This document shows, one piece after another, positions 4,122-53,265 of a stretch of DNA of 64,000 nt. A program made the translations under genes and the position numbers. Position 1 is the stretch's first letter; each line of letters starts with the position of its first letter. The notes under the pieces were generated by a model, which saw nothing but the letters and a program-made list of their open reading frames with translations, did no database searches and was not told where the DNA came from. The stretch lies in assembly GCA_022711495.1 (NCBI GenBank), contig JAKLEX010000001.1, positions 225,389 through 289,388 of the forward strand, read 5' to 3'. The DNA comes from Patescibacteria group bacterium. Lineage in GTDB: Bacteria > Patescibacteriota > Minisyncoccia > Phycocordibacterales > JAACPR01.

Positions 4122-5138
4122 GTGAAGAGAACAAAGGTAGTGAAATTGGGTGTCCACAGCTCGCCCCATCTGGACGAATTGGTGGCGGTCCATCTGCTTC
4201 GGAACTACGGGGAAGAGAAAATCCCCGGAGTTTCGACGGCAGTCCTGACTACATACGGCAAGACTGAGCTTCAGCAATTGTCGCCGGAAACAGCGGCAAT
4301 GCAGGGCATTCTTCTTGTCGGCATAGGCGGTGGAATGTTCGACGAGCACGGCCGACGCGGTTCGCGCCAGGATTGCGCGGCGACACTGGTCGCCAAGCAC
4401 CTGGGTCTGGACGAGGATCTGTTATGGCCGCGCTTTCTCCGGAACGTGTTCCTGGCGGACGCGGAAAACCGTGGTCCGTACACGTTCGTAGCGGAGCTCG
4501 TCAAAAAGCTCAACCGCTACTGGGTGGGCACCCTCGATCCGGAATTGCTGTATAAGCAAGTCGAACCGATCATTATCGCGCTTCGAGTTGAAGTTGAGCT
4601 TCTGGCTGAAGCCGAGCATCGTTTCCGCAAGGCCTACAAGCGGGAGATCAACGGCTACCAACTGGTGGCGGTGGACCAACTGGACAACGTCGAATTCCAG
4701 CACGTCGCAAACCGTGCCGGGGTCAACGTCGTCGTTCAGCGGGGGCGCGACGGGCTGACTCAGATTCTGATGAGGCACGCCTCGTCAGATGAACTGGACG
4801 TGCCCGGTCTGGCCGTTCGTATCCGCAAGGCGGAAATGGCCAAGTCCGGAATTCGCCCGAAGCGGTTTCTGGACGATCGCGCGCTGTCGGCGATGGGAAC
4901 TCTTTCCGATATACCCCAGTGGTATGTTGAGAAGGGGAACCTGTTAAACGGATCGGAATCTTTCCGGGACGTTCCGCCTTCGGGCATTTCGTTTGCCGAC
5001 CTGGTACATGTCGTTGAGAAGCACCTGCGCGAATTGGACGATGAGTCTGATCCGCGCGATTCGGCGGAAAAGTCGGGTAAATCGATTTGCGAAAGAGAAC
5101 CGGCCCCGACCGAAGAACTACCGGTGGATGGCGACTGA
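4122..5138 (+). CDS. Hypothetical protein, possible metal-dependent hydrolase (H-x3-H-x-D-E motif reminiscent of MYG1/UPF0160)
   Basis: GTG start with Shine-Dalgarno site. N-terminal VHSSPHLDELVAVHLL motif. GC-rich. Longest ORF among overlapping alternatives. Confidence 0.45.
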   Translation: MKRTKVVKLGVHSSPHLDELVAVHLLRNYGEEKIPGVSTAVLTTYGKTELQQLSPETAAMQGILLVGIGGGMFDEHGRRGSRQDCAATLVAKHLGLDEDLLWPRFLRNVFLADAENRGPYTFVAELVKKLNRYWVGTLDPELLYKQVEPIIIALRVEVELLAEAEHRFRKAYKREINGYQLVAVDQLDNVEFQHVANRAGVNVVVQRGRDGLTQILMRHASSDELDVPGLAVRIRKAEMAKSGIRPKRFLDDRALSAMGTLSDIPQWYVEKGNLLNGSESFRDVPPSGISFADLVHVVEKHLRELDDESDPRDSAEKSGKSICEREPAPTEELPVDGD

Positions 5139-9109: not shown

Positions 9110-10315
9110 ATGAATAATCAAAGAAAAATAGTTTGGTTACTGACATTATTAGTTCTGCTTGTTGTTGGTGCGAATATTGCCGAAGCCGCCACGACTTGTA
9201 CTTTTACAAGAGACCTGGCTTTAGGTGATAACGGCGAAGACGTTCGTTGCTTGCAACAGTATTTAAATAGTGCCGGCTACACAATCGCAGCATCGGGCGT
9301 CGGTTCGCCTGGAAACGAAACAAGCTTGTTTAGAACTTTGACGGAGCAAGCGGTGATTAGGTGGCAAACAGCCAACGGTATTTCACCGGCTTCCGGATAC
9401 TTTGGTCCAAAGTCACAAGCAAAATATAATGCACTAATTTCTGGATCAAGTTCTGGCTCAAGTTCCAGCTCATCCGGCAGCTCGTCATCCAGTTCTTCCA
9501 GTAGCTCGTCCGGTTCATCCAGCTCCAGCTCTTCGTCAAGTAGCTCATCAGCTAACTCGGAGAGAAGCGAGGCCGAAGATACAATCTTAGAGGCTGTAGA
9601 CGCCATTTATGATGCCGAAGGGCAAATAGAAGATAGCGATGAAGATGAAGACGATATTGAGGATGCCGAAGAGATGTTAAAAGATGCTCGTGAAAATCTT
9701 TATAATGCCATTGAGGCGTATTTTGACGAAGATTACGATGATGCCATAGATTCAGCCGACGACGCCATTTCAGACGCCGAAGATGCTTATGAACAAGCCG
9801 GCGGGGAATCAGAAGAGGACGAAGCCGAGCAAGCCATTGACGACGCCGAGGACGCCTTAGACGCCGCCGAAGCCGAAATTGAGGAAGCGGACGACGATGG
9901 TGAGGAAGTCGGCGAGGCCGAAGATCTTTTTGACGAAGCTCAAGACTTGTTAGACGAAGCTGAAGAGGCTTTTGATGATGAGGATTATGACGAGGCTATT
10001 GATTTAGCCGAAGAGGCCGAAGATACGGCGGACGAAGCCGTCGACGCTATCGGTGAAGAAGGCGACGATGAAGAATCAGACGCCGAAGAAGCTATTGAAG
10101 ACGCCGAAGATGCCATTGATGCCGCCGAAGAGGCCATTGATGAATCAGACGCGGATGCTGATGACATAGAGGAGGCCGAAGATCTTGTTGACGAGGCTAA
10201 CGATTTGCTAGACGAAGCCGAAGAAGCCTTTGACGACGAAGATTACGACGATGCCATTGACGCTGCTGAAGAAGCTCAAGAAAAAGCCGAAGAAGCCGAA
10301 GATTTGGTTGATTAG
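9110..10315 (+). CDS. Secreted peptidoglycan-binding-domain protein with poly-Ser tract and polyacidic repeats (family member 2)
   Basis: Same N-domain (CTFTRDLALGDNGEDVRCLQQYLNSAGY). Poly-Ser run of about 35 aa. Repeated acidic modules EEAEDLxDEAxDLLDEAEEAFDDEDYDEAID. Confidence 0.7.
   Translation: MNNQRKIVWLLTLLVLLVVGANIAEAATTCTFTRDLALGDNGEDVRCLQQYLNSAGYTIAASGVGSPGNETSLFRTLTEQAVIRWQTANGISPASGYFGPKSQAKYNALISGSSSGSSSSSSGSSSSSSSSSSSGSSSSSSSSSSSSANSERSEAEDTILEAVDAIYDAEGQIEDSDEDEDDIEDAEEMLKDARENLYNAIEAYFDEDYDDAIDSADDAISDAEDAYEQAGGESEEDEAEQAIDDAEDALDAAEAEIEEADDDGEEVGEAEDLFDEAQDLLDEAEEAFDDEDYDEAIDLAEEAEDTADEAVDAIGEEGDDEESDAEEAIEDAEDAIDAAEEAIDESDADADDIEEAEDLVDEANDLLDEAEEAFDDEDYDDAIDAAEEAQEKAEEAEDLVD
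9443..9552 (+). repeat. Poly-serine coding simple-sequence tract (AGY/TCN codon repeats)
   Basis: About 110 nt encoding SSGSSSSSSGSSSSSSSSSSSGSSSSSSSSSSSS. Confidence 0.8.
10061..10315 (+). repeat. 255-bp direct repeat copy 1 (3' end of paralog CDS), ~99% identical to 13128-13382
   Basis: Base-by-base comparison shows only 2 mismatches over 255 nt, including the stop codon. Confidence 0.9.
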
Positions 10316-13443: not shown

Positions 13444-14358
13444 TTACCGTCTAACAAAACTGCGGACAATCTTAAATAAAATCCAGATAAGAAACGCAAT
13501 AACCAAATACAACAAGATTTTATATTCCAAAATTCCGTAAAGGGTCTTGAAGAGATAGAGTTGCCCAGTCTTCAAAAATATTTGTCTTGATAACATTCGT
13601 CCTTCGGCTGGAGCGGACAATTCCGCTCGTCCCTCAACAATCGTCTGTTTAATAGCTTCGTTGCGAGCCTTTAGGTCCGCAAGCTCTTCTTCCAGAGCGA
13701 GAATTTTGCCTTCAATTTTGTCGCTCAAAGAATCGGCGCCGGTGTTGATACTTTGGAGGGCACTGTCGGCGGTTTCTTTGATGGTACTGACGACTTGTCC
13801 TCCGATATCGTTCTCATCATCTTCTTTCGTATCTCGGTTATCCTCATCGTCCTCTTCATCGCCGATACCGTCATCGTCGGAGTCATAATCAACAAAAATT
13901 TCTTCCGATTCTATGATGTTGTTTTTTATTTCTACGTCGCTTCGCCAACCGCTAGAGGTATTTTTTTTGACATTAGTGAGTTTGGCGTAAATCTGATGAG
14001 TGCCGTATTCTGGAGCAAAATCAGCCCAGCCTTCAATAAGTCGGCCGTTGAGAGCGGAGAATTCTTTGGTCTCAATTCTCTTGCCGTTGTCATAGAATTC
14101 TATCTGACCGGTGATGTCATCGCCGGATTGATTTTGAAAAGCCACGTAAATACGAGCATTTTCATCGGCGAAAAGAGGAAATTTTGAATACCAAATTCCG
14201 CTGACAAAACCGGCGTTAGTCTTCACCGCGGATTCGGCCGCTTCAACTTTTTCTGCGGCCAAGACTTTTCCCACTATTAGAACCTTTTCCGCGTTGATTA
14301 ATAGAAGGGATAGACTTAATATTGCAAAAACACTGAAAAATTTAAAGTTTGTCATCAT
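13444..14358 (-). CDS. Secreted acidic coiled-coil protein with C-terminal TM anchor, hypothetical
   Basis: N-terminal signal peptide. D/E-rich segment. Coiled-coil segment (LALEEELADLKARNEAIKQ). C-terminal hydrophobic helix. Confidence 0.5.
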   Translation of the reverse strand: MMTNFKFFSVFAILSLSLLLINAEKVLIVGKVLAAEKVEAAESAVKTNAGFVSGIWYSKFPLFADENARIYVAFQNQSGDDITGQIEFYDNGKRIETKEFSALNGRLIEGWADFAPEYGTHQIYAKLTNVKKNTSSGWRSDVEIKNNIIESEEIFVDYDSDDDGIGDEEDDEDNRDTKEDDENDIGGQVVSTIKETADSALQSINTGADSLSDKIEGKILALEEELADLKARNEAIKQTIVEGRAELSAPAEGRMLSRQIFLKTGQLYLFKTLYGILEYKILLYLVIAFLIWILFKIVRSFVRR

Positions 14359-15327: not shown

Positions 15328-16491
15328 ATGAGAGAAATAAGAGAAAAGCCAAGCCTACTGATTTTGGGAGTTTCTGGCGGTGTTGCTGGCGCATTTTTAC
15401 AAATTTTCAGGCAGTACAGAAATAACTTTTCAGAAGTTATCTTGTTGGATAAGGACGATAAAATTTTGCGCTCTGGTCAAATTGACCTTGTCAGAGATAA
15501 ATACTCTTTTATAAATCAGGACATAGTTTTACAAAATATAGAGCTAGTTTTGGCAGATATAAAACACAAACATGATATCTCTATCGTTCTAGATCTGACA
15601 GATTGTGAGACTTTTCCGATATTACAAGCGGCCGACAAACTTGGTCTAAGCTACTTGAATTGTTCTTTAAATAATGGTGATGAATCGATGAAAAATTTCG
15701 TCCGAGACTATAAAAGTTTCACTCAAAAGTTTAAGAACAATGCCCACTTGTTATCAATAGGGATGAATCCCGGAATTATCAACCACCTGGTTGTCAGGGG
15801 AGTTCTGGAATATGGAATACCAAAAGAATTTGTTGAAATTGAGTATGAGACGGGTTTCCCAGAGAAAGACGTCGGTCGCCCTTTTATAACTTGGTCTAGA
15901 AAGCAATTTTTACTAGAGTCAGTTTTATCTGGTTCCGGTTATTGTGGTTCCGGCGGAAAGTATGTGGAATCTAAAAGTTCTGCGATAGAGCACCCAATTA
16001 AGACTGAAGAATTTTTATCGCCAATAAAAAAATTTGATTCCTATCCTTTGGGGATGATTGTTCCTCATGATGAGATTATTTCAATGTCTAGAATTATCGA
16101 AGTTCCTGGCAGATTTGTCTATGCCATACACCCGGTTTCTTTGTCTAGGTTAAGGGAAATTTTCAATAAAAAGGGGAACGTTGTTGAATCAGATATAGAT
16201 CTTTTAGATGGAGTTACAAAGAAGTTAATTGGGTCTGATCTGATAGGCGTCTGGTTATTCTATGACGATAAAAAGATTTGCTATTTTTGTGAAGTCAACC
16301 ACAAAGACGTCTCCGGGACAAACGCCACTTTATTTCTAGTTGCCGTGGGCGTTCTGGCGGCGCTCATGGATTTTATTAGCAATCCTTTGTTAGAAAACGG
16401 CGTCTCTTTCGTTAATGAGTTAAATAGTAAAAATTTTCAGAGGTTTGTATCTAGATACGTCAAGATTAATAAGATTGAGGTGAAAAAATAG
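15328..16491 (+). CDS. Saccharopine-dehydrogenase-like NAD(P)-binding protein (possibly polyamine biosynthesis type), tentative
   Basis: N-terminal LLILGVSGGVAG Rossmann-like glycine motif. GMNPGIINH resembles the G-x-[DN]-P-G-x-x-N motif of the saccharopine/carboxynorspermidine dehydrogenase family. Confidence 0.4.
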   Translation: MREIREKPSLLILGVSGGVAGAFLQIFRQYRNNFSEVILLDKDDKILRSGQIDLVRDKYSFINQDIVLQNIELVLADIKHKHDISIVLDLTDCETFPILQAADKLGLSYLNCSLNNGDESMKNFVRDYKSFTQKFKNNAHLLSIGMNPGIINHLVVRGVLEYGIPKEFVEIEYETGFPEKDVGRPFITWSRKQFLLESVLSGSGYCGSGGKYVESKSSAIEHPIKTEEFLSPIKKFDSYPLGMIVPHDEIISMSRIIEVPGRFVYAIHPVSLSRLREIFNKKGNVVESDIDLLDGVTKKLIGSDLIGVWLFYDDKKICYFCEVNHKDVSGTNATLFLVAVGVLAALMDFISNPLLENGVSFVNELNSKNFQRFVSRYVKINKIEVKK

Positions 16492-16560: not shown

Positions 16561-17115
16561 TTGAAATTGGACAGATCCTATTGGATAAGGACCCTGTCTG
16601 CGCACGGACTGCTGTCTGCTACTGACTACGCGTTTGATAACTGGATCTACCCAGCCGTCTTGATTTGGCTGGGTGTGATTAACGGATGCGTTGTCATGAC
16701 GATGGCCAGCATGGTGTTGTGCGCAGGGTTTCTGGCCGTTTATGAACGGATGAAGATCGATTGGCTTGGAGTCAATGCTCTAGAGGTGGTTAAGGAGCAT
16801 GGTCAATCGTGGGTTCGCCGCTTAGACGCAGCCAACATCTTGATTAGGGTGTTTGCCTGGATTCCGACTCGTATTTTTCTGGTTGTCCTTTGGGCAGTCA
16901 AGAAAAACGACCTGTTGGCGTTTCTGGCATTCTCTCTATATGAAGATGCTTTCAAAACGACCGCCTTTCTCCGAAAGGGAAAGTTTGGTCGTTTTGGGCG
17001 AAAGGATGTAGGAATCTTTTTCGCCTCTCTTGTGATATCGAATCTGTACTGGACAGTTCGGTGGACTGTCATAATTGGTATCATTAAGAGAATTTACCAT
17101 TGGGTTATGACCTAA
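16561..17115 (+). CDS. Integral membrane protein, hypothetical
   Basis: TTG start with strong Shine-Dalgarno site. 4-5 TM helices. Terminator downstream. Confidence 0.45.
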   Translation: MKLDRSYWIRTLSAHGLLSATDYAFDNWIYPAVLIWLGVINGCVVMTMASMVLCAGFLAVYERMKIDWLGVNALEVVKEHGQSWVRRLDAANILIRVFAWIPTRIFLVVLWAVKKNDLLAFLAFSLYEDAFKTTAFLRKGKFGRFGRKDVGIFFASLVISNLYWTVRWTVIIGIIKRIYHWVMT

Positions 17116-17198: not shown

Positions 17199-17972
17199 AT
17201 GGTAGAAGATATATACACAGATCCAAAAGAAGCTGTCGCTGAACTCAAAAGGCGCCAGAAAAACCCCGAGTTGATAAAAAAAGTAGAGGAGTATTTAAAA
17301 GGTGATATTCCAGAGCCGTTGGTTAATTTTTTAGAGAAACCGAAAATGGTTTTGTTTCGAAATATTTTTACTCCTGACTATGAGTTGGACATTTTTTTAA
17401 AGTACGCGAAAGAGATCGGCGCCCAACCCATTCTCTTTGAATATACGGACGATATGTTTGTCGCTAAGAATGAAGATAAATATGCCCTTGGCAAGCTCAT
17501 GTTTTATTTAAATACGGATAAAGAGGGGCATGTAAATACAAAAAATTTGAAGATCATTGATTTTAATGATTCCGAACGGAAAAACATTCGAGACATAAAA
17601 ACTTTATGGGGAGAATCGTTAGTAGATTTTCATCATAGGATATTAGCCCATTTTTTTTCTGACAAAAAACTACATATTTATGATTGTTCAGCCTGGTTTC
17701 ATCGAAATGGGGGTCACCCGGATGGTTATTATTATAAAATATTTTCTTTATTTATTTGTCACGCCATAATGTTCGAGAATTTTAGAAGCTCTGGTACAGA
17801 GGGGGAGTTTTTTAGGAAAATATTCTTACCGATTTATTCTGAAACAGTCAATTTCTTTGGTTTTAAACCAATAATTTGCCGGATTCAACCCCCTGAAGAA
17901 GAGAATAATCGAAAATGGTGGGGATATCCAAAAGACAGAATGGAAGAATTCTTATCGAGCTCATCAGACTAA
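17199..17972 (+). CDS. Hypothetical protein
   Basis: 257-aa ORF with GTCTTATAAT box upstream. No recognisable motif. Confidence 0.45.
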   Translation: MVEDIYTDPKEAVAELKRRQKNPELIKKVEEYLKGDIPEPLVNFLEKPKMVLFRNIFTPDYELDIFLKYAKEIGAQPILFEYTDDMFVAKNEDKYALGKLMFYLNTDKEGHVNTKNLKIIDFNDSERKNIRDIKTLWGESLVDFHHRILAHFFSDKKLHIYDCSAWFHRNGGHPDGYYYKIFSLFICHAIMFENFRSSGTEGEFFRKIFLPIYSETVNFFGFKPIICRIQPPEEENNRKWWGYPKDRMEEFLSSSSD

Positions 17973-41377: not shown

Positions 41378-42997
41378 ATGTTTGATAAAGTAAAATCCAG
41401 CGAAATAAAATTTTCAAGACCGCCGGTCGCTTTCTTTTCAATGGAATATGGTTTTGACGATGAAAAAAATCAGTACGCCGGTGGTTTGGGCGTGCTCTCA
41501 GTTGATTTTTTGTTAGAAGCCGGTGAGCAAAATATCTCGTTTATCGCTCTCGGTTTAAAATATTCCGGCGCCGTGCTCTCTTCTAATTTCAAGGAACTTG
41601 AATTTGAAGATGGCCCTATTTTATATCTGCCGATCGCTGACCGGCGCGTTGCTTTCAGGGCGCTGTTTAAAAAATATAATGAAAACACCTATCTCATTTT
41701 GCTTGATATTGAATTACCGGAAAATTCCGATGTTGACAAAGATATTTTAAAAACTGTATATGATTCGGACGCCGAAACTTTTTTGAAACAACAGATAATT
41801 TTGGGATTGGGCGGAAACATGGTTTTGCAAAAACTTCAGATTTCACCGAGTGTTTATCATCTGAATGAGGGGCACACGGCCTTTGCCGCTCTAGGACTTC
41901 TTCTTGAAGAAGCCTGCACCAAACAGATTTCTCTGAAAGAGGCCTTCGCTCTTATTACTGGAAAAATTGTCGCAACTAAACACACTATTTTGTCAGCTGC
42001 CGGAATGCATCTTCCAAAGGGGCTTTTTGATTTTTACTTAGGCAAGTACTGTCTGGAAAGCGGCTTTTCCGTTGATGAGGTCTTTGATTTTGAGCAAGGG
42101 ACAAAGGATGATGACGACAATTTTTCAACGACCAAATTTTTGATAAAGATTGCCGGACGGCAAAACGGGGTCAGCAAGCTTCACGCGACTTATGAAAAAA
42201 AAGCTCATCCGGAAAGTAATTTAATTGCTATCACAAACGGAGTCAACAAAAATCGCTGGCAGGCTCAAGAATGGGTAGATAATGAAAAGAGTCTTATAGA
42301 AACAAAAGCTTCTCTACGATCTAATTTGATAGATTTGGTTAAAAAGAAAACGGGGCAGGAGCTTTCTCCAGATAAATTAACATTAGTTTGGGCCAGGCGA
42401 CTTACTAAATACAAGAGACCAGAGATACTGTTTATTCACCCCGAAAGGCTGTTAAAGGTCTTAAATGATGAGAAGGCAGCGATTCAGGTCGTTATCTCCG
42501 GCAATGCTCATCCATCAGATGAATTTGGCAAGCGAACTTTAAAAATGATTCTGGATTTTATAAAAGATAATCATCTGGAATCAAAGTTGGTCTATCTGCC
42601 GGATCACAATCCGGAAATTTCTCACGCGTTGGTTGCCGGTGCCGATGTTTGGCTAAACACTCCGATTCGTGGAATGGAGGCTTGCGGAACTAGTGGCATG
42701 AAGGCCGGACTGAACGGCGGATTGCAATTAAGCGTTTCTGATGGTTGGGTTGATGAAGTGGACTGGCGAGGTATTGGTTGGATTTTGCCCGATGCCGACG
42801 CAGGAAAAACCGCAGCGGCCATATTTGATTTACTGGAATCGGAGATAATTCCTCTCTTTTATAAAAAAGATAACGAAGATCGGTTTACTGACGAATGGGA
42901 AGAGAGAATGCGTAAAACTCAAGGAATTGTGTTAGATAATTATACAACCAAAAGGATGTTGGGTGACTATTTAAAGTGGCTATATCTAATAAATTAA
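41378..42997 (+). CDS. Alpha-glucan (glycogen) phosphorylase, short GT35 form
   Basis: NEGHTAFAAL, and EACGTSGMKAGLNGGLQLSVSDGW resembling the PLP-site region EASGTxNMKxxLNG. Confidence 0.7.
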   Translation: MFDKVKSSEIKFSRPPVAFFSMEYGFDDEKNQYAGGLGVLSVDFLLEAGEQNISFIALGLKYSGAVLSSNFKELEFEDGPILYLPIADRRVAFRALFKKYNENTYLILLDIELPENSDVDKDILKTVYDSDAETFLKQQIILGLGGNMVLQKLQISPSVYHLNEGHTAFAALGLLLEEACTKQISLKEAFALITGKIVATKHTILSAAGMHLPKGLFDFYLGKYCLESGFSVDEVFDFEQGTKDDDDNFSTTKFLIKIAGRQNGVSKLHATYEKKAHPESNLIAITNGVNKNRWQAQEWVDNEKSLIETKASLRSNLIDLVKKKTGQELSPDKLTLVWARRLTKYKRPEILFIHPERLLKVLNDEKAAIQVVISGNAHPSDEFGKRTLKMILDFIKDNHLESKLVYLPDHNPEISHALVAGADVWLNTPIRGMEACGTSGMKAGLNGGLQLSVSDGWVDEVDWRGIGWILPDADAGKTAAAIFDLLESEIIPLFYKKDNEDRFTDEWEERMRKTQGIVLDNYTTKRMLGDYLKWLYLIN

Positions 42998-43023
42998 CCC
43001 TTTCTATTGTGGGTAAAATCTGT

Positions 43024-43029
43024 TATAAT
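43024..43029 (+). promoter_or_regulatory. TGTTATAAT extended -10, 8 nt upstream of glgA GTG start (leaderless-type)
   Basis: TGTTATAAT at 43021-43029. GTG at 43038. Confidence 0.4.
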
Positions 43030-43037
43030 ATACAACC

Positions 43038-44546
43038 GTGATAGGCATTTTTTGTAAGAAGAATTTAAAGATTCTGTTTGTTGGCGCAGAGGCAGCTCCG
43101 TTTGTGAAAATCGGCGGATTGAGCTCTGTGATGAAATCTTTGCCGAAGGCCCTAAATGAGATTGGGCACGATGCTCGGGTTATGATCCCGAAATATCTTT
43201 CTATTGATACTGAAAAATATTTTTTGAAGATGGAACATGAAGGATTGGAGGTTCCAACGGGGAATTCCGCTGAACCGGACCACCTAGTTTGTAACGTCAG
43301 ACGTTGTGATCCAATTAAAGAGGAGGGAATCGTTACGACCTATTTTTTGGAAAATCAAGAATACTATGAAAAACGCGCTAACGTTTACGGCTATTCTGAC
43401 GATCCGGTTCGTTGGGCGCTACTCTGTCGTGGTGTCTTAGAATTTATTAAGAAGAATAGAAACTGGGTGCCGGATGTAATAGTTTGCGCCGACTGGCAAT
43501 CTGCTCTTATACCAAACTTTTTAAAGACAACTTATTCTAATATTCCGAAATTAACCAAAATAGCCACGGTCTTTTCAATTCACAATCTTTACTTCCAGGC
43601 CATGTATGACCATCGTTTCGTGTCGGAAATGGATTTTGATGACGGGCATTCGGAAATTCCGGGATTTGATAATCCGCGATTGACTAAAATTAATTGGATG
43701 AGAAGAGGTATTATGTACGCTGATGCCATAAATACCGTTTCGCCAACTTACGCCAAAGAAATTATGACCAAAAATTATGGTGAACTGCTTGACGAATTGC
43801 TTCGCGAACGCCGTTCGGTTCTTTCCGGAATTTTAAACGGAATTGATTATGATCTCTGGAATCCGGAAAAGAATCCGCATGTAGCCTTCCCTTATTATGC
43901 TAGAAACCTTTCGGCTCGGGCTAAAAATAAGGCCAGTTTACAAGGACAATTTAATCTGCCGATTAAAAAAGATGCTTTTATTATGGCGATTGTTTGCCGA
44001 TTTACAAAACAAAAAGGTCTTGACTTGTTAATGCCGATTTTGGACCTGATTTTGCAGGAGTTACCGGCGCAGTTAGTTATTGTCGGTGAAGGTGATTCGG
44101 AATATATGCACTTCTTCCATAATTTGGAAACAAAATATCCAGACAAAGTCGCGGTCCATTTGAAATTTGATAGTGTTTTGGCTCACAAAATTTTTGCTGG
44201 AGCTGATGTGGTTTTGGTCCCTTCAAAGTTTGAGCCTTGTGGTTTGGTTCAGCTGGAAGCCATGAGAATGGGCACCATCCCAATTGTTAGAAAGACGGGC
44301 GGGTTGGCGGATAGTGTTGAAGACTATAGTCCGGAAAAACAGACTGGTACCGGATTTGTTTTTGAAAAATTTGATTCATCATCGCTTATGATCGCCATTA
44401 TTAGAGCTTTTGAAAATTTCCGCGATAGGGAACGTTGGCAAGAATTACAAAAGCGCGCGATGTCAAAGGATTTTTCTTGGGAAAGTTCGGCAGAAAAATA
44501 TGTAAAATTGTTTTTGCAGGCGATCGCCATACATGGACCAAAATAA
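43038..44546 (+). CDS. glgA: Glycogen synthase (GT5, ADP/UDP-glucose type)
   Basis: KIGGLSSVMKSLPKAL N-terminal motif. About 500 aa. Confidence 0.85.
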   Translation: MIGIFCKKNLKILFVGAEAAPFVKIGGLSSVMKSLPKALNEIGHDARVMIPKYLSIDTEKYFLKMEHEGLEVPTGNSAEPDHLVCNVRRCDPIKEEGIVTTYFLENQEYYEKRANVYGYSDDPVRWALLCRGVLEFIKKNRNWVPDVIVCADWQSALIPNFLKTTYSNIPKLTKIATVFSIHNLYFQAMYDHRFVSEMDFDDGHSEIPGFDNPRLTKINWMRRGIMYADAINTVSPTYAKEIMTKNYGELLDELLRERRSVLSGILNGIDYDLWNPEKNPHVAFPYYARNLSARAKNKASLQGQFNLPIKKDAFIMAIVCRFTKQKGLDLLMPILDLILQELPAQLVIVGEGDSEYMHFFHNLETKYPDKVAVHLKFDSVLAHKIFAGADVVLVPSKFEPCGLVQLEAMRMGTIPIVRKTGGLADSVEDYSPEKQTGTGFVFEKFDSSSLMIAIIRAFENFRDRERWQELQKRAMSKDFSWESSAEKYVKLFLQAIAIHGPK

Positions 44547-44564
44547 TTTTTCTGAGAGATTTAT

Positions 44565-46061
44565 ATGAAATGGGCCAATTTTTTACACTTTTACCAACCG
44601 GCGCAACAACAGGCAGATATTTTAGAGGCCGTTGCGACTCAGTGCTATCGTCCGGTTATCACGAGCATTTTCAATAATCCCAAGGCGAGGATGACTATCA
44701 ACATCAACGGCTCTCTCTTGGAGTTGTTTGATAAATATGGCTATCAAGACTTAATCAAAATGTTGCGCGAACTGGGCGAACGAGGACAGGTAGAATTTGT
44801 TAGTTCGGCCAAATATCATGCTTTTTTACCCCTTCTAGGTAAAGAAGAAATCTTAAGACAAATTAAAATTAATGATCAAACAAACGCTCATTACTTAGGG
44901 GAAAAAGCTTATCGTCCCAAAGGCTTCTTTTCACCAGAGATGGGTTATTCCAAACATGTCGCGGAAGTAGTTGAAGAAGCCGGTTTTGAGTGGATGATCT
45001 TGGACGAAATAACCGCCACGGGAAAGGTGGGCGCCGTTGACTATTCCAAGACTTATAAAATCCAAGGGACAAAGTTAAAAGCTTTCTATCGAGAGAGACG
45101 TCTAAGTAACGCCATTATGAGTGCCGTGGTTAGAAACACAGATTCTTTGGCCGAGGCCATGGCTAATGAACTGGCCGGGGATAAATATGTTCTAACCGGA
45201 ATGGACGGAGAAACCTTTGGCCATCACCGCCCGGGGCTAGAAAAACTTCTTGAGAATGTTTATAAAGATAATCGTTTTGAACTGGTGACGATTTCTGAAC
45301 TTCCAGATTTATATCCGGAGGTTGTTGAAACTGAACCGGTGCCATCAACCTGGGCCAGCAGCCAAGACGATATTGATCGTCACATTCAATTTTTATCCTG
45401 GAAAGATCCAGAAAATCCAATACACGCGTGGCAGTGGGAATTGTTTAATCTGGTAAATAAAACGGTTAGGTCAACTAAAGTGCCCGAAAATGATAGGGAA
45501 CTGATTTGGAGAAAAATGGATATTGCCACCGCGAGTGATCATTTCTGGTGGGCTTCGGCTAAACCGTGGTGGAGTCTGGAAATGATTGAGGCCGGCGCGT
45601 TCATGCTACTTGACGTGATGAGGAGCGTCCCAAAGATTTCTCAAAAACTTGTAAAGAAAGCCGAAGATCTATACTTAAAAATTATTTCAACCGCCTGTGA
45701 TTGGCAGAGAACGGGAAAAGTTCGAACCATGGCTAAAGCTCAACGGACGATAACTCGCATTCCGTTCAAAGATCGAACCGTTGGCCGAGGAGGCGCCGAA
45801 GAGGGCGTTTATCATGCGTTTATCAAAATGATGCGCGATTTGGAGCAAAAAGCCGTGCAGAATCACGAGTATGAAAAAGCCATCCTTTGGAGAGACGCCG
45901 TTTTTAAATTAGAAAACAAGCTTGATATTTATGAGGCCATAAATATTATTGATCTTGTTAGACTTGAAATTCCGTACGAAGAAATAGAAAAAACTATTGA
46001 TAAATATAAAGATGAGTACCGACGAATTCGCGGAGGTCAGCCGGAACAGAGGGGCGCGTAG
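44565..46061 (+). CDS. Glycoside hydrolase family 57 (alpha-amylase/branching-enzyme type)
   Basis: N-terminal LHFYQP and GMDGETFGHH motifs characteristic of GH57. Confidence 0.7.
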   Translation: MKWANFLHFYQPAQQQADILEAVATQCYRPVITSIFNNPKARMTININGSLLELFDKYGYQDLIKMLRELGERGQVEFVSSAKYHAFLPLLGKEEILRQIKINDQTNAHYLGEKAYRPKGFFSPEMGYSKHVAEVVEEAGFEWMILDEITATGKVGAVDYSKTYKIQGTKLKAFYRERRLSNAIMSAVVRNTDSLAEAMANELAGDKYVLTGMDGETFGHHRPGLEKLLENVYKDNRFELVTISELPDLYPEVVETEPVPSTWASSQDDIDRHIQFLSWKDPENPIHAWQWELFNLVNKTVRSTKVPENDRELIWRKMDIATASDHFWWASAKPWWSLEMIEAGAFMLLDVMRSVPKISQKLVKKAEDLYLKIISTACDWQRTGKVRTMAKAQRTITRIPFKDRTVGRGGAEEGVYHAFIKMMRDLEQKAVQNHEYEKAILWRDAVFKLENKLDIYEAINIIDLVRLEIPYEEIEKTIDKYKDEYRRIRGGQPEQRGA

Positions 46062-46107
46062 ATCTTTATCTTAGAATTATTTTAGAATTTTCTTAAGAGG
46101 CGCTTAC

Positions 46108-46632
46108 TTATTCTAGAGTTGAAATTCCAATAACGATGCTCGTCTCTCCTTCTTCAGAAGTTCCTATGTAGAGACCAACATTTCGACCATCTTTGTCGGC
46201 TGAGAGGACAGCGGCGTTACCCATAGAAGTCATCTGTGAAATTGTCCAGCCGGCTTTTTCTAACTCCGTTTTGTAGAAATTAGAAACAGTCAAGGCGTTG
46301 TCATTCGTGATAAAAGAAGCGGTTAGTCTATTTTGACCGTCTTGTTCTGTAACAGACCCGGCTAAAACAGCTGCACCAGGATAGCTAGGGACGTCGCTCG
46401 GCCAATTTGCCGGCAAAGAATTTGTACCGACGGTAACGGTTCCGTCTTCGGAAGTATAAGTTACATCGCCGTTTAATTTTTGATTAATTTCTACACCCGG
46501 CGCGATTGTCTTTTTACTGCCGAAAACAAAGAAAGCGATTAGGGCAATAATTACAACAGCGATAATTCCGTAAATTTTCTTTTTTGATCCAGAAGAATTC
46601 TCAACTGGTACATTTGAATTTTGTTCGTCCAT
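46108..46632 (-). CDS. Membrane-anchored extracytoplasmic hypothetical protein
   Basis: N-terminal TM (IIAVVIIALIAFFVF). 174 aa. Confidence 0.45.
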   Translation of the reverse strand: MDEQNSNVPVENSSGSKKKIYGIIAVVIIALIAFFVFGSKKTIAPGVEINQKLNGDVTYTSEDGTVTVGTNSLPANWPSDVPSYPGAAVLAGSVTEQDGQNRLTASFITNDNALTVSNFYKTELEKAGWTISQMTSMGNAAVLSADKDGRNVGLYIGTSEEGETSIVIGISTLE

Positions 46633-46713
46633 GATAAATTATTTATCTAATAATTTTCCTCACTAAATCTGCATAAAAGTATAACACTCTGTCGCTTTAA
46701 AATCACTCATTAA

Positions 46714-46745
46714 CAAAAACCGCGCTTAAGCGCGGTTTTTGTTAA
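46714..46745. terminator. Bidirectional rho-independent terminator
   Basis: AAAACCGCGC-ttaa-GCGCGGTTTT. Confidence 0.7.
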
Positions 46746-46760
46746 TCCTAAAATTTGGAT

Positions 46761-48563
46761 TTAGTAGGTTGTTGTTGAATCTTTAACTAGCTCCCAAGCT
46801 CCTCCTGGCCCAATCCACATCCAGTGGTATCCGACTGGGTGATTTGGATATTTTCTCTCCATTCTTTCACAGCTCTTCATACCATAGAGATGTGAATGGC
46901 TAGGAATTACATCTCCCCATGAATACTGGGTTGGTCTAACTACGCCTTCCTTTGCAGGATAATCAGTTCCGCCGGCAGGGTTTCTTATGCCTGGGCAGAT
47001 CTTGTATTGTATTTGCTGACCGTTATATGTTGTATAACCAATTTCTCCACTTGCATCAGTATTTTGCATGTAGTAACCAGGAATCGTAGATATACCACTT
47101 TGACCCATAGTTGCCACTAACTCTTCTACTGATTGATTATATGCGCCAACCGCTCCTTGAGTGAAGTTTTGAGAGAATTGAAGCAGACAGTCATTGACGG
47201 TGCTTCCTTTTTCCCAACAATCTCGCCAACAATCACAGTTAATTCTGCCGGCATCACAAACGCCATTTGTTGAGTGGGTCATGGTGTAACCAGCCTCTGG
47301 AAAAGCCTTGTGAATACATATATCATTTACGACATGTTGTCTTGCCCCATCTATAAATAAGTAGTTTGTCGTCGTTGCTGGAGTAGTTGATGCGGTAGAA
47401 GAGCCAATATTCTCAACGACCTCAATAGCCTCTTCTGCCAATCCTTCCGCTTCTACGGCATAGTCAAGAGCATCGTCGTAATCTTCATCGTCAAACTCTT
47501 CTTCAGCCGTATCCAGTTGTTCTTTTGCTGAATCTACCAAGCCGTTTGCTTCGTCAATGGCCTCTTCCGCCCCATCTTTAACATCGTCGTATTCGCCATC
47601 CTCAAAATCTTGCTCGGCTTCTTCTACGACACCTTCTGCCTCTTCGATGGCGTCTTCGGCGTCGTTAATAGCCTCTTCGGCGTCATTTTCATCGGCATCA
47701 ACTTCTTCAGCTAAATCTTCCGCTTCCTCGGCCTTTTTTTGAGCTTCTTCTGCCGAATCAATGGCCTCATCATAATCCTCATCATCAACAGACTCTTCAG
47801 CATCCTCTAACAAATCTTTAGCTTCATCGACAAGCTCCTCGGCATCTTCAATATCGTTATCATCAGCATCCGATACGTCTATAGCATCTTCAGCGTCATC
47901 TATAGCATCTTCAGCGTCTTTAATTGCTTCTTCTGCACCGTCTTCGTCTTCGTCGTAAGAAGCTTTTGATTTTTTCTTTAACGCGTCTTCAGCCTCTTCT
48001 GCCTTTTCCACGGCATCAACTCCAAGTGTTAGGGCTTTGTTATATTGACCTTTGTTATAAGCATCCTCCGCGTCGTCCAGTATTTTCTCGGCGGCTTCCC
48101 ATAATTTTGTGGCAGAACTATTCTTTGCTTTTTTAACTTTATCGTAAACTTCACTTACGGTATAGATTGCCTCGTTTATGGAAGAGGCGGCCTCTCTTTG
48201 CTGGCCCTCCACGCCACCGACATTGCCGGGATTTCCGGTAACCAATGTATTATATTTCGCGATAGACTTTGCTCCGAAATAGCCCGCAGCTGGAGTGACT
48301 CCATTGGCCGCTTGCCATCTCTGAACTGCACCCTGGGTTGCGTTACCGAAAAAGATTGTTTCATTTCCAGCTGAACCAACGCCAGATTGCGCCACCTTGT
48401 AACTGGTGCTGTTTAAGTACTGCTGCAGACATCGCACGTCTTCACCGCTTACTCCTAGATTTAGGTCTCGGGTGAAAGAACAAGCCGCATCAGCCCTGCT
48501 GATTCCGACAAAAAGCAGAACCAACACAGGCAACAACCAGCTCATTTTTCTTAAATAATTCAT
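46761..48563 (-). CDS. Secreted PG-binding-domain protein with polyacidic repeats and Cys-rich C-terminal domain (family member 4)
   Basis: Signal peptide. CSFTRDLNLGVSGEDVRCLQQYLNSTSY. Conserved REAASSINEA...YNKGQY linker shared with the 10449 gene. Acidic modules. About 200-aa C-terminal domain with 10 Cys. Confidence 0.7.
   Translation of the reverse strand: MNYLRKMSWLLPVLVLLFVGISRADAACSFTRDLNLGVSGEDVRCLQQYLNSTSYKVAQSGVGSAGNETIFFGNATQGAVQRWQAANGVTPAAGYFGAKSIAKYNTLVTGNPGNVGGVEGQQREAASSINEAIYTVSEVYDKVKKAKNSSATKLWEAAEKILDDAEDAYNKGQYNKALTLGVDAVEKAEEAEDALKKKSKASYDEDEDGAEEAIKDAEDAIDDAEDAIDVSDADDNDIEDAEELVDEAKDLLEDAEESVDDEDYDEAIDSAEEAQKKAEEAEDLAEEVDADENDAEEAINDAEDAIEEAEGVVEEAEQDFEDGEYDDVKDGAEEAIDEANGLVDSAKEQLDTAEEEFDDEDYDDALDYAVEAEGLAEEAIEVVENIGSSTASTTPATTTNYLFIDGARQHVVNDICIHKAFPEAGYTMTHSTNGVCDAGRINCDCWRDCWEKGSTVNDCLLQFSQNFTQGAVGAYNQSVEELVATMGQSGISTIPGYYMQNTDASGEIGYTTYNGQQIQYKICPGIRNPAGGTDYPAKEGVVRPTQYSWGDVIPSHSHLYGMKSCERMERKYPNHPVGYHWMWIGPGGAWELVKDSTTTY
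47878..47919 (-). repeat. Perfect 2x21-nt tandem duplication inside acidic repeat coding region
   Basis: TCTATAGCATCTTCAGCGTC[A/T] twice, encoding DAEDAID twice. Confidence 0.8.
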
Positions 48564-48637
48564 AAATAAAATTAAACTAATAATTTGATAATTACGGGTG
48601 AATTATACCACAAAGCGCTGTTCTTTGAGGGGGTGGG

Positions 48638-48871
48638 TCAAGAGTTGTTGATATCTTGGCCCGTTGCTACCGACTCATTATTTGCCGTTTTAGACAATGT
48701 TTTTGGTACGAAATATAGGGCGATAACGACGAATAATATCCACCAGAGCCAGATTACTTTGACCAAATAATCATAGAAGTACAGACCTAGCAAAATTCCC
48801 AATGAGATAAGGCAAAGCTTTATCAGTCCTACCTCCCACCACTTAAATGTCCATGTTCTAAATATCTTCAT
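48638..48871 (-). CDS. Small membrane protein, hypothetical
   Basis: 77 aa with 2 TM helices. Confidence 0.3.
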   Translation of the reverse strand: MKIFRTWTFKWWEVGLIKLCLISLGILLGLYFYDYLVKVIWLWWILFVVIALYFVPKTLSKTANNESVATGQDINNS

Positions 48872-48949: not shown

Positions 48950-48980
48950 AAAACCCGCCATCACGAGATGGCGGGTTGGT
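48950..48980 (-). terminator. Rho-independent terminator (minus strand)
   Basis: Reverse strand CCCGCCATC-tcgtg-ATGGCGGG followed by a U-run. Confidence 0.55.
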
Positions 48981-51449: not shown

Positions 51450-52340
51450 CTAATTTGCGCGAGAATAGTAGTCAAATAACCCCAAGACTCCGGCCAGATT
51501 TTGCTCCCATTCAACAGTTTCATGGGTTTTTAGTTCAACTGTTATGGAAGGAATGTTGATCGTTGCTAACCAACCCTCAAGGTCACCCGTAACTACATAA
51601 TCATCAAATGTTGTGGATTTTAAGTAGCCAGATTTTTCGGAATAAATGTTCATGATGTCTGTTGTTTCAGGCAAAATACCATTTCCACATTCGCCGGCAT
51701 AAATAGTGTTGGCTTGACTATGCCAGGAAACAACCGCTCTAGGTTTTATTTTCAGGACAAAATCTCTAATGGCTTGCGATTCCGGTTCAGAAAAGGGGAA
51801 GTCGCCCGCTCCGACTTTATTATTTCGCCAACTAGCTTCCGGCGACCAGCGGCAATCAAAATTTCTATTTAGGTCAACCCCTCTGGCGTTAAATCTTCCA
51901 AGACCGGTCGTGTTTTTTTCTGCCGGCAAGTCTGTTAGGTCAAATTTTCCTTCTTTGCCAATATATTTATAAACCCCATCCGGGTTGGCGGAAGGAATTA
52001 CTGCGACAGAAAAGTTTTCTGGAATTGTGTTCGGATTTTGCTTGAAATAATCAATAAATCTGTAAGCCAAGACGACGCTATTCCATTCGTATCCACCGTG
52101 AATTCCGCCGATAAACAACAGCGGCGTTTTTCCAGTACCAAAGACATACGCATTTATCTCTCGTCCTTCTACCGATTTACCGATTAAAATTTCTTGTGGT
52201 TCCGTTAAGGTGCTGCTTTCTGTTGGGACATAAACAGGTTCCGATGAGCCACTGTACAAACTTATCAATACAAAAGCAGCGCACAAAACAATCGCGACCA
52301 ATAGTATAACGCCCCAGATCTTTTTTCTGCCAGAAAACAT
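51450..52340 (-). CDS. Secreted M14-family zinc carboxypeptidase-like protein
   Basis: Signal/TM. GGIHGGYEWNS and VDLNRNFDCRW (DxNRNF is typical of M14). Confidence 0.6.
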   Translation of the reverse strand: MFSGRKKIWGVILLVAIVLCAAFVLISLYSGSSEPVYVPTESSTLTEPQEILIGKSVEGREINAYVFGTGKTPLLFIGGIHGGYEWNSVVLAYRFIDYFKQNPNTIPENFSVAVIPSANPDGVYKYIGKEGKFDLTDLPAEKNTTGLGRFNARGVDLNRNFDCRWSPEASWRNNKVGAGDFPFSEPESQAIRDFVLKIKPRAVVSWHSQANTIYAGECGNGILPETTDIMNIYSEKSGYLKSTTFDDYVVTGDLEGWLATINIPSITVELKTHETVEWEQNLAGVLGLFDYYSRAN

Positions 52341-52353
52341 CTCTTAGTTTTGT

Positions 52354-53265
52354 TTAATCCGTGTAATATTCCAATACCGCTTCTATACCTGCGAGATTCT
52401 TCGTCCACTCCGCATCATTATGGCTAGTCAGCAAAACACCAATGGCCGGGATATCATTTTTCGCCAGCCAGTTGACCATATCACCGGTTATTTCGTAGAA
52501 GTCAAAGTCTTTATAAGCTTTGTAGCCGGAAGCCTCGGCGTAAAGGTTAACCAAATTTAAAGTTTCCGCTGACACGCCGTTATGGCAACTTGAGGCGAAA
52601 ACTCCGCCGGCGGCGCTATCCCAAGAAATGACGGCCGTCGGCTTATTGGCTTCAACATAATTTTTTAGAGCGGCGCTTTCTGGTTCAGAAAAAGCCGAAT
52701 TTCCGCCGCTGACTGACTTATTTTGCCAAGTTGCAGCCGATTGCCAGTCACAATCAAAATTTCTGTTCAAATCAACTTCGTTGCCGTTAAATCTGCCCGG
52801 TATGGTTTCTGAAAGAGATAGTGAAATGTCAGAAGCTTCAAATGGGCCCTCGTTCTCTACGACTTTACTTAACCCATCAGGATTTAACACCGGGATGATC
52901 GTTACCTTGACCGCTTCCAGTGCTAAAGGCGGATTTTCTGATAAATGATCTATAAGGTTGTAGGCGACTAGAGAACTGTTCCAAGAGTATCCGCCGTGAA
53001 TTCCACCGATAAACAAGATCTCTTTTTCCCCGCGACCGAAATGATAAGCGACGATGTCCAACCCGTCCGCGGAAGTTCCTATAATTGTTTTCGCCCCATT
53101 CGTTGGTTCAGTAACCTGATCAGTACTGGTGGCGTTTTTTTGTTCCGATTCGTCAGCGCGATATTCGTCTGGACTCTGAAGCGCTTCAGACGAAAGGTTA
53201 ATTAAATAATACAATCCCAACCCAACCAAGATAACAACTGTGATTATGATGATTACTTTTTTCAT
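52354..53265 (-). CDS. Secreted M14-family zinc carboxypeptidase-like protein (tandem paralog)
   Basis: Same motifs (GGIHGGYSWNS, VDLNRNFDCDW). About 40% identity to its neighbour. Confidence 0.6.
   Translation of the reverse strand: MKKVIIIITVVILVGLGLYYLINLSSEALQSPDEYRADESEQKNATSTDQVTEPTNGAKTIIGTSADGLDIVAYHFGRGEKEILFIGGIHGGYSWNSSLVAYNLIDHLSENPPLALEAVKVTIIPVLNPDGLSKVVENEGPFEASDISLSLSETIPGRFNGNEVDLNRNFDCDWQSAATWQNKSVSGGNSAFSEPESAALKNYVEANKPTAVISWDSAAGGVFASSCHNGVSAETLNLVNLYAEASGYKAYKDFDFYEITGDMVNWLAKNDIPAIGVLLTSHNDAEWTKNLAGIEAVLEYYTD

Follow-up and report, generated by a model that had tools for sequence, protein, structure and literature searches.

The minus-strand gene at positions 46761..48563 of the window analysed here, a stretch of 64,000 nucleotides from contig JAKLEX010000001.1 of the Patescibacteria assembly GCA_022711495.1, encodes a peptidoglycan (PG)-binding protein whose C-terminal region had been matched to no recognisable motif in a preliminary description. 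The region was presented there as one novel Cys-rich domain of about 200 residues, suggestive of a disulfide-stabilised extracellular effector or binding module, and as the possible functional 'warhead' of its carrier. The question raised by this locus is whether the region is a real part of the protein and, if so, whether it binds, cleaves or has no selected function at all. The reading that we favour, with a probability of roughly 45%, is that of a lineage-specific, disulfide-stabilised and non-enzymatic binding module that would be carried by a PG-anchored polyanionic stalk.

Gene structure and probable translation of the C-terminal region

The ORF is complete, with 600 amino acids and a stop codon, and its translation contains every peptide quoted in the preliminary description. 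The product is identical to the NCBI entries HRY31164.1 and HRZ34448.1, annotated as 'peptidoglycan-binding protein [Candidatus Paceibacterota bacterium]'. The part under study, hereafter the head, comprises the non-acidic residues 400-600 (window 46764..47366) directly after a Ser/Thr linker. Its 201 codons are free of stops, which has a probability of ~1.9e-6 by chance at the local base composition, its frame (frame 0) reaches the top codon score among the six, and the other frames of 46761..47400 hold no competing ORF of at least 60 aa. Given the stop-free run, the best-of-six frame and the terminator just past the stop, it is very likely that the head is a real, translated C-terminal part of a wall protein from an uncultured Paceibacterota (CPR) bacterium, as opposed to the untranslated stretch for which the preliminary description had allowed. 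The DNA of the locus is identical in five assemblies (JGI, NCBI, ENA and two from Logan) over up to 7.8 kb; with all five public copies 100% identical, there is no variation for dN/dS.

On the other hand, the codon usage of the head is atypical. At -0.08, its codon score is exceeded by those of all the window's housekeeping genes (0.26 +/- 0.06), and its codon and composition scores fall under those of all 30 reference genes and overlap those of off-frame translations. GC3 is 0.34 in the head vs 0.445 in the housekeeping genes, a depression that is not specific to the tail, since the acidic region of the same protein is likewise low (0.36). Upstream of the ATG, an extended -10-like element can be read which, being without a detectable -35, does not appear in the list of the consensus promoter scan. 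The neighbouring genes encode an MFS transporter, two M14 carboxypeptidases, glycogen-metabolism functions and small ORFs of no known function.

Modular architecture and paralogs

The signal-peptide-like segment of the N-terminus was called by direct reading of the sequence; from this segment and the PG-binding domain that follows it can reasonably be inferred that the protein is extracytoplasmic (Table 1). The PG_binding_1 stretch is also matched by the endolysin PHROGs 1493, 1224 and 17214. DUF4398 (PF14346) was detected with 29.7 bits against a gathering score of 27.9, in two stretches that lie within residues 118-389 and outside the head. Residues 206-386 contain 49% Asp+Glu and have a net charge of -82, and the full-length AF2 model places helices over 118-389 with pLDDT of about 60-93.

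Table 1. Positions in the window of the modules of the protein, the flanking signals and the three paralogs.
Feature	Residues	Window	Strand	Basis or remark
Secreted PG-binding / acidic-repeat protein bearing orphan C-terminal region		46761..48563	-	ORF
Signal-peptide-like N-terminus MNYLRKMSWLLPVLVLLFVGISRADA	1-26	48486..48563	-	basic start, hydrophobic core, A-x-A end
PG_binding_1	39-90	48294..48449	-	PF01471, 27.7 bits vs cut-off 23
Long helical repeat region, DUF4398	118-389	47397..48212	-	
Ser/Thr linker GSSTASTTPATTT	387-399	47367..47405	-	sequence
Six-Cys sub-region (C416, C436, C443, C445, C449, C459)	400-470	47154..47366	-	
Short motif common to two paralogs, VGAYNQSVEELVATMGQSGIS	472-492	47088..47150	-	weak
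Gly/Tyr/Thr-rich part with C523, beta-hairpin predicted (low confidence)	493-537	46953..47087	-	
Possible RcnB/YohN-like (PF11776-like) module, ...WGDVIPS...C565...PVGYHWMWIGPGGAWELVK	538-594	46782..46952	-	
Intrinsic terminator		46709..46746	-	17-bp stem, 4-nt loop, T-rich tail; begins 15 nt past stop
Putative extended -10-like element TGGTATAAT, 39 nt 5' of ATG		48602..48610	-	sequence reading
Paralog, 452 aa		7678..9036		
Paralog, 401 aa		9110..10315		
Paralog, 977 aa, SGNH hydrolase		10449..13382		

The protein had been counted as the fourth of a set of paralogs, and this holds: all four carry PG_binding_1, and over its first 285 aa it is 56% identical to the 977-aa SGNH protein (E 8e-84), the similarity ending before the C-terminal region. 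The paralogs and the ~300-aa CPR relatives (P0007, P0009 ... P0021) have the same signal peptide, PG_binding_1 domain and DUF4398-like acidic repeats, and three of the four paralogs have a short V-x-x-Y...LVxT[MY]G motif after the linker. No other paralog of the window bears the Cys-rich head, which does sit, as proposed, at the position held by the SGNH hydrolase region in the 977-aa paralog. Variable heads were also seen in CPR relatives of the N-terminal module, namely PF10342 and a cupredoxin-like domain. The same design, in which a domain that binds the wall is combined with a functional domain that varies, is found in PF01471-anchored wall proteins and endolysins; unlike these, our protein has no detectable catalytic domain and a polyanionic helical stalk of 270 aa separates its anchor from its head. 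The protein is a variant of a known modular architecture.

Composition and layout of the head

Ten Cys had been attributed to the C-terminal domain, a number that is correct for the whole protein (residues 28, 45, 416, 436, 443, 445, 449, 459, 523 and 565) but not for the head, which has only eight, C28 being located just upstream of PG_binding_1 and C45 inside it. The Trp/Gly-rich character is real, with 23 G, 14 Y and 6 W within the 201 aa (Tyr 7%, Trp 3%); high Tyr/Trp content is typical of many extracellular beta-rich binding modules. Compared with a random translation the head is strongly depleted in Leu (3.0% vs 10.8%), Arg (3.5% vs 8.2%) and Ser and enriched in Gly (11.4% vs 4.9%), Tyr and Trp, while Cys, at 4.0%, is near the 3.3% given by random codons and far over the 0.8% of the local proteome. 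The overall amino-acid composition is outside the range of the housekeeping genes of the window.

Rather than the single domain originally envisaged, the head appears to be composite. Its first part, with the motif C-x6-C-x-C-x3-C-x9-C, is weakly predicted as helical (low-confidence AF2 secondary structure), and residues 400-470 have no family match in the domain scans. The short motif that follows has weakly supported copies in the 452-aa paralog (8758..8820) and the 977-aa paralog (12333..12383), with shuffle P of 0.008 and 0.053. A borderline match to phrog_28165, a PHROG of unknown function, covers residues 474-546 (E 6e-4 to 1e-2), a lead for which tblastn against phages returned nothing. 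The last part, residues 538-594, is rich in His, Met and Cys, with H556, H558, M562, C565, M567, H575 and H580 forming a cluster. No internal repeat was found between the two halves of the head.

Searches for relatives and structure

At the sequence level the claim of novelty is upheld, since neither Pfam nor NCBIfam nor PDB offers a family match, let alone one to a ubiquitous domain, and no homologue occurs in 1.84 billion cluster representatives, from which an exhaustive phmmer search retrieved only the protein itself and P0002. With the head and three of its sub-fragments as queries, Pfam, NCBIfam and PHROGs yielded nothing except the borderline phrog_28165, and hmmscan with these queries listed no Pfam family at E up to 10. 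A word-indexed search of 5.8 billion clusters produced no match, and among about 15 billion proteins no relative of the head was detectable. It was not found in genome, viral or metagenome contigs, tblastn against phages and plasmids reached a best E of 1-3, and tblastn, blastn and tblastx against the window revealed neither a second copy nor an out-of-frame source. The N-terminal module has 18 CPR relatives, all of them lacking the head, and the fusions to other carriers that the preliminary description had suggested looking for were likewise absent, the head being confined to a single protein of one clonal population. The literature on Cys-rich CPR secreted proteins and on sample 3300010429 contained nothing relevant. 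Single-sequence AF2 models were too low in confidence to be used, with a pLDDT of 34.8 when the head was modelled by itself and under 50 for the head within the full-length model; a Foldseek search of PDB with the poor model, of no informative value, found no match (best E 0.99).

P0002, a protein of Ig-like repeats, was rejected as a homologue because its 74 bits are repeat-inflated, being summed over seven repeats with only ~44 aa matched in each. These repeats (Ig_2 / SprB-type) have in common with our protein the motif C...G-[FY]-x-[YW]-x-W-x-G-P-G-G; the Ig_2 domain (PF13895) of ~80 aa was nevertheless discarded for the head, as Pfam matches it in P0002 and not in our protein, where a full domain of that length is impossible because the chain ends 15 residues past GPGG.

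Weak resemblance of the tail to RcnB/YohN

In PDB, the sole phmmer match was YohN (2l1s), with an E of 0.066 and an alignment over nearly the whole RcnB domain, and residues 538-594 are possibly RcnB/YohN-like. We collected 18 diverse RcnB members through plasmid tblastn and region fetches, a scan of genome contigs having given only Enterobacteriaceae. Against this alignment hhalign assigned the tail a probability of 80.3% (P 1.4e-5, 53/76 columns) and, in a second run, 68% (P 4.7e-5, score 30.8), 300 shuffles reaching at most 17.9 and 3%. Of the window's 56 long ORFs, it was this protein that gave the top hit. The RcnB hypothesis was chosen post hoc from the PDB search and its P-values overstate the support accordingly. 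A HMMER profile of the same 18 sequences, run with --max, gave the tail 9.2 bits and a non-significant fifth rank among 20001 shuffles, and placed the protein second among the six-frame ORFs; PF11776 was absent from the hmmscan of head and sub-fragments at E up to 10. As the family was widened the HMMER support fell, and that from hhalign stayed moderate. AF2 models of the RcnB-like region had pLDDT of 25-46.

The likeness to RcnB/YohN (PF11776; NMR structure 2l1s) is one of layout as well as of motifs: both are signal-peptide proteins that end, past a highly charged region, in what would be a small extracytoplasmic module, and both have W-x-G-D-x-[IL]-P ... P-x-G-[YH]-H-W-x-x-x-G ... L-[VI], represented in our protein by the blocks GDVIP and PVGYHWMWIG...ELV. 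There are also clear differences, since the conserved Y-x-V-x-D-W of RcnB is replaced by LYGMKSCE, the hairpin carries a 'PGG' insertion, and the chain stops directly after the L-V strand, so that the final strand of the RcnB family is missing. Our protein comes from a CPR bacterium, whereas every RcnB member collected is from Proteobacteria, and no rcnA-type efflux gene lies near it, although the rcnA linkage is true of enteric rcnB only. In E. coli, Ni/Co homeostasis is described as requiring RcnB, which is periplasmic (Bleriot et al. 2011, J Bacteriol 193:3785, as cited in PMC7055735).

Discussion

In the arrangement that we infer, Sec export would deliver the protein to the wall, where PG_binding_1 would anchor it; some 270 aa of extremely acidic DUF4398-like helical repeats would serve as a stalk that holds the 201-aa head, joined on through the Ser/Thr linker, away from the peptidoglycan. 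The head itself would consist of a probably helical six-Cys sub-region, a short helix motif common to two paralogs, and a beta part, rich in Gly, Tyr and Trp, that contains the other two Cys and may adopt an RcnB/YohN-like fold over its last ~57 residues, the Cys presumably forming disulfides. As for what it may bind, our best guess is a metal cation or some other ligand of the envelope, on account of the His/Met/Cys-rich RcnB-like tail and the net charge of -82 of the stalk. It can be further speculated, with considerable doubt, that the head, restricted to a single CPR lineage, represents a disulfide-rich extracellular fold that is truly new, or joins a six-Cys helical part to a highly divergent RcnB-like one in a new combination, and that it confers attachment specificity for a host or ligand or else binds metal at the tip of a cation buffer made of polyanionic protein in the wall.

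A binding module has to be weighed against the unlikely case of a young or fast-drifting extension, arisen de novo or by scrambling, which is translated yet largely or wholly lacks a fold or selected function, its Cys merely reflecting unselected codon content. A head that is a singleton in all proteins searched and lacking in all the CPR relatives of the N-terminal module would fit such an origin, as would the near-random frequency of Cys, the codon and composition scores that overlap those of off-frame translations and the failure of AF2 to produce a confident fold. However, the length of the stop-free run (P about 2e-6) in the best of the six frames and the marked departures of Leu, Arg, Ser, Gly, Tyr and Trp from random expectation are contrary to it, a selected, folded module is favoured by the match of hhalign to RcnB and by the Cys coming in an even number, and genuine domains, too, are often missed by AF2 when it has no alignment to work from.

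We consider it quite unlikely that the head instead serves an episymbiont in host contact, as an adhesin or effector that binds a surface molecule of the host cell and evolves under host-specific selection too fast for its relatives to be recognised. The contig of about 0.55 Mb comes from a small-genome CPR bacterium of the Paceibacterota, and organisms of this kind are generally known to live as episymbionts; the predicted display of the head on the end of a long stalk, its orphan status and the variable heads of the module family in relatives are all consistent with this view. Nonetheless, the sampled copies, all identical, display no diversifying selection, and the proposal overlaps with the binding module that we favour, from which it differs in the ligand alone.

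The 'warhead' of the preliminary description finds no support, no catalytic family or motif having been detected, and we regard as improbable a divergent wall hydrolase parallel to the SGNH hydrolase that the 977-aa paralog has at the equivalent position. PG_binding_1 is a common companion of wall hydrolases, the endolysin PHROGs match the N-terminal domain, and the head contains HxxxD, HxH and 'GDVIPSHSH' strings that resemble peptidase motifs; they could be arranged as a LAS/M23-type metallopeptidase (H410-x3-D414, H556-x-H558) or a papain-like/NlpC-type enzyme (C416, H556/H558). Motif spacing is roughly 80 residues in M23 and 50-70 in NlpC/CHAP, far from the approximately 145 residues between H-x3-D and H-x-H, and the HxxxD falls within a predicted helix. 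Scans of the C-terminal region with Pfam, NCBIfam, PHROGs and PDB found no enzyme family, peptidases and hydrolases included, at E up to 10, Peptidase_M23 and M15 among them; the LAS/M23, NlpC/CHAP and YkuD assignments suggested by motif spotting were rejected for want of a family match and for wrong spacing.

Lastly, it is very improbable that the tail does not belong to the protein, whether because the assembly is chimeric, the gene a frameshifted pseudogene or the gene call wrong: the atypical codon score and GC3 would suit an artefact, but the same DNA was obtained independently in all five assemblies, the frame is unbroken between the PG-binding domain and the stop with its strong terminator, no rival ORF of at least 60 aa overlaps the tail and the acidic region is similarly low in GC3.

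As it stands, the head adds one more lineage-specific orphan region of a kind common in CPR genomes, and its practical value is mainly that of a target for structure determination. If it is a folded binding module, it would illustrate how a minimal-genome CPR bacterium diversifies a single scaffold of PG anchor and polyanionic stalk, tipped with an SGNH hydrolase, with nothing or with an orphan head. If the RcnB-like nature of the tail were confirmed, a proteobacterial periplasmic metal-homeostasis domain would extend to CPR, which would hint at protein-based cation handling in the envelopes of these bacteria.

Architecture of the protein and its genomic context

The 600-aa protein combines a PG_binding_1 anchor, acidic repeats, a Ser/Thr linker and, from residue 400, a non-acidic Cys-rich tail of 201 aa with 23 Gly, 14 Tyr and 6 Trp (pI 5.75). 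All peptides quoted in the preliminary description occur in the translation, and its account of the tail was essentially right except for the Cys count: the 10 Cys placed in the C-terminal region are those of the entire protein (residues 28, 45, 416, 436, 443, 445, 449, 459, 523 and 565), eight lying in the tail and the remaining two in the N-terminal PG-binding domain. Residues 206-386 contain 49% Asp+Glu (net charge -82), and the full-length AF2 model shows long helices over residues 118-389 (pLDDT about 60-93).

The suggestion that this is a fourth paralog was borne out, the anchor being common to the target, the SGNH-bearing 977-aa protein and two further paralogs of 452 and 401 aa, in both of which it was also detected by Pfam. 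Residues 1-285 of the target are 56% identical to the 977-aa paralog (E 8e-84), the similarity ending upstream of the tail. The 452-aa and 977-aa paralogs also have, right behind their low-complexity linkers, the 21-residue motif that spans residues 472-492 of the target (VGAYNQSVEELVATMGQSGIS); the consensus for these three of the four proteins is V-[GD]-x-Y-x-x-x-[VI]-x-x-L-V-x-T-[MY]-G. When the target was compared with each of the two paralogs, shuffling returned P values of 0.008 and 0.053; the two paralogs compared with each other showed no significant likeness. The motif, which may mark either a junction helix common to these proteins or a site of recombination at which heads are exchanged, separates the six-Cys part of the tail (residues 400-470) from its two-Cys beta part (493-600); the two parts show no repeat relation. 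The 452-aa paralog itself closes with ~30 Gly-, Trp- and Cys-rich residues (...GDWYNNGILNPGGCSAGECSWGT), which follow a long stretch rich in Ser, Asp and Glu; they resemble the target tail no more than expected by chance (P 0.38).

The gene is bounded by a terminator on one side and by its own on the other, the latter with a 17-bp stem beginning 15 nt past the stop; 39 nt separate the ATG from a TGGTATAAT element upstream of it. Neighbouring genes (membrane proteins, GH57, starch synthase, an MFS transporter and M14 peptidases) gave no hint of tail function.

Features of the target protein, its paralogs and the surrounding genes (window coordinates)
Feature	Position	Strand	Remarks
Target ORF	46761..48563	minus	600 aa
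PG_binding_1	residues 39-90		Pfam 27.7 bits, cut-off 23
DUF4398	in acidic repeats		Pfam 29.7 bits, cut-off 27.9
Acidic repeats + tail	46764..48212	minus	
Ser/Thr linker	directly before residue 400	minus	GSSTASTTPATTT
Tail (residues 400-600)	46764..47366	minus	
Motif, target	47088..47150	minus	
452-aa paralog	7678..9036	plus	motif at 8758..8820 (plus)
401-aa paralog	9110..10315		
977-aa paralog	10449..13382		motif at 12333..12383 (plus)
77-aa membrane ORF	48638..48871	minus	upstream of target, same strand
Terminator	48952..48977		
174-aa membrane-anchored protein	46108..46632	minus	downstream of target; match to PF27226 (AF_1845)
Glycogen/starch cluster	41378..46061	plus	phosphorylase-like, starch synthase (Glyco_transf_5 + GT1), GH57; directly downstream of target locus, opposite strand
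Two tandem Peptidase_M14 genes	51450..53265	minus	zinc carboxypeptidases, 296 + 303 aa
469-aa ORF	264..1673	plus	weak SprB-repeat match
Six ORFs, 184-387 aa	2946..3914, 4122..5138, 13444..14358, 15328..16491, 16561..17115, 17199..17972		none matched a Pfam family (E up to 1e-4)

The tail as an orphan region

To judge by these sequence searches, the tail is without a family. Pfam and NCBIfam returned no family for it or its sub-fragments at E up to 10, and a borderline match was obtained to phrog_28165, of unknown function (E 6e-4, residues 474-546). Phmmer, run exhaustively against 1.84 billion representatives and the main basis of the orphan conclusion, retrieved only the protein itself and an 830-aa protein with Ig_2-type repeats, which reached 74 bits because one 44-aa stretch recurs seven times (C...GFNYAWTGPGGF in the target, C...GYHWMWIGPGGA in the repeat protein). 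A full Ig domain is impossible here, since the target stops 15 residues past GPGG. Neither a word-indexed search of 5.8 billion clusters nor scanning of contigs from genomes, viruses and metagenomes gave a match to the tail; these two approaches also missed the window's own protein and its in-genome paralogs, the protein itself being recovered by the exhaustive search, and their negatives may partly reflect absence of the source genome. The tail was likewise not found by tblastn in phages and plasmids, and fusions to other carriers, which the preliminary description had proposed to look for, appeared in no protein, contig, phage or plasmid search. The window holds no second copy or out-of-frame source of it. 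Orphan regions like this tail are common in CPR genomes; this genome too has many orphan proteins (Table), and the novelty of the target is to be seen against this background.

Coding evidence, composition and structure

At the local base composition, 201 codons free of stops would arise by chance with a probability of ~1.9e-6. By codon usage the annotated frame outscores the five others (-0.08 against -0.44 to -0.77), and other frames of 46761..47400 hold no competing ORF of at least 60 aa. That score is nonetheless below those of all 30 reference genes (0.26 +/- 0.06). GC3 is 0.34 in the tail and 0.36 in the acidic repeats, clearly below the reference 0.445, whereas the PG-binding part of the same gene reaches 0.475; expression level, age or composition constraints could account for the low values. 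The Cys content (4.0%) is near the 3.3% that random codons of this GC would give and far exceeds that of the local proteome (0.8%), and the composition score falls outside the range of 77 real-protein windows and within the upper quarter of off-frame translations, thereby keeping alive the reading of the tail as a young, weakly selected or unselected extension, which we hold to be unlikely, if the strongest of the alternatives. Against random expectation the tail is poor in Leu (3.0% vs 10.8%), Arg (3.5% vs 8.2%) and Ser (6.0% vs 9.8%) and rich in Gly (11.4% vs 4.9%), Tyr (7.0% vs 4.3%) and Trp (3.0% vs 1.4%), strong departures of the kind seen in many extracellular beta-rich binding modules.

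AF2 without alignment modelled the isolated tail at a mean pLDDT of 34.8 (25-46 within the full-length model), and Foldseek of this low-confidence model reached a best E of 0.99; it roughly outlines helices over 400-490 and beta-hairpins at ~508-521 and ~580-593.

A possible RcnB-like module

The sole match in a PDB sequence search was YohN/RcnB (2l1s, E 0.066), aligning residues 530-595 with almost the entire domain. Profiles were built from enteric RcnB sequences and from distant proteobacterial ones collected by tblastn against plasmids and retrieval of the matching regions (Acinetobacter, Azospirillum, Ralstonia, Caballeronia, Paraburkholderia, Phenylobacterium, Sphingobium, Sinorhizobium, Asticcacaulis, Komagataeibacter, Sodalis and Rahnella). 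HMMER support was mixed and weakening, from 11.0 bits (rank 2/2001, enteric only) through 13.1 bits (rank 1/5001, 10 diverse sequences) to 9.2 bits (rank 5/20001, 18 diverse sequences), and not significant given the after-the-fact choice of family. Profile-profile comparison is more favourable: hhalign gave 68% probability (P 4.7e-5; best of 300 shuffles only 3%), rising to 80.3% (P 1.4e-5, 53 columns, residues 538-594) with the last 80 residues, and the target ranked first among 56 long window ORFs (33.7 vs 21.3 next). The second-best match, the 174-aa downstream protein (P 0.0028), is probably due to chance.

The target shares with the family W-G-D-V-I-P-S (family W-x-x-G-[DE]-R-[LI]-P), P-V-G-Y-H-W-M-W-I-G (P-P-R-G-[YH]-H-W-V-x-x-G) and E-L-V (Y-V-L-[VI]). 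The family's middle Y-x-V-x-D-W block and its last strand have no counterpart in the target. A true RcnB-like fold is a tentative assignment, somewhat short of even odds. Many His, Met and Cys residues fall within the aligned stretch (H556, H558, M562, C565, M567, H575, H580, M582). E. coli RcnB is periplasmic and needed for Ni/Co homeostasis (Bleriot et al. 2011, as cited in PMC7055735).

Discussion

The most defensible interpretation is that of a Sec-exported, PG-anchored protein whose polyanionic helical stalk would carry outward, for display, a binding head that is lineage-specific and non-enzymatic and is probably stabilised by disulfides. From sequence comparison, a divergent RcnB-like module may form the C-terminal end of this head, whose partner is likely a metal cation or a ligand from the envelope or the host; the earlier idea of a disulfide-stabilised extracellular effector or binding domain is plausible. 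A host-contact adhesin or effector would differ from the displayed binding head solely in its ligand, and we consider it improbable, slightly more so than a young extension. A divergent wall hydrolase seems less probable still: although the 977-aa paralog bears an SGNH hydrolase, the tail matched no Pfam or NCBIfam family at E up to 10. An artefact is very improbable, since the same gene occurs in JGI 3300010429 (552,797-bp contig), GCA_035454325.1, ENA ERZ27257455 and Logan SRR5007146 and SRR5007150, with DNA 100% identical over up to 7.8 kb (compared with 43761..48797), which rules out assembly error and leaves no variation usable for selection tests. Such identity points to one clonal population or to related samples; the identical NCBI protein is named 'peptidoglycan-binding protein [Candidatus Paceibacterota bacterium]', and the four members of the 90% cluster differ solely in called start.

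None of the 18 relatives of residues 1-202, of which those with names are CPR proteins (e.g. Moranbacteria), has the Cys-rich tail, most being ~300 aa proteins of anchor plus acidic repeats. In two CPR proteins related to the PG_binding_1 module the C-terminal domain is a different one, PF10342 (P0016) or the cupredoxin-like PF13473 (P0023); CPR lineages have therefore combined the same anchor with a variety of heads. The design of a PG-binding anchor plus a variable domain is already known, and the target protein is a variant of it.
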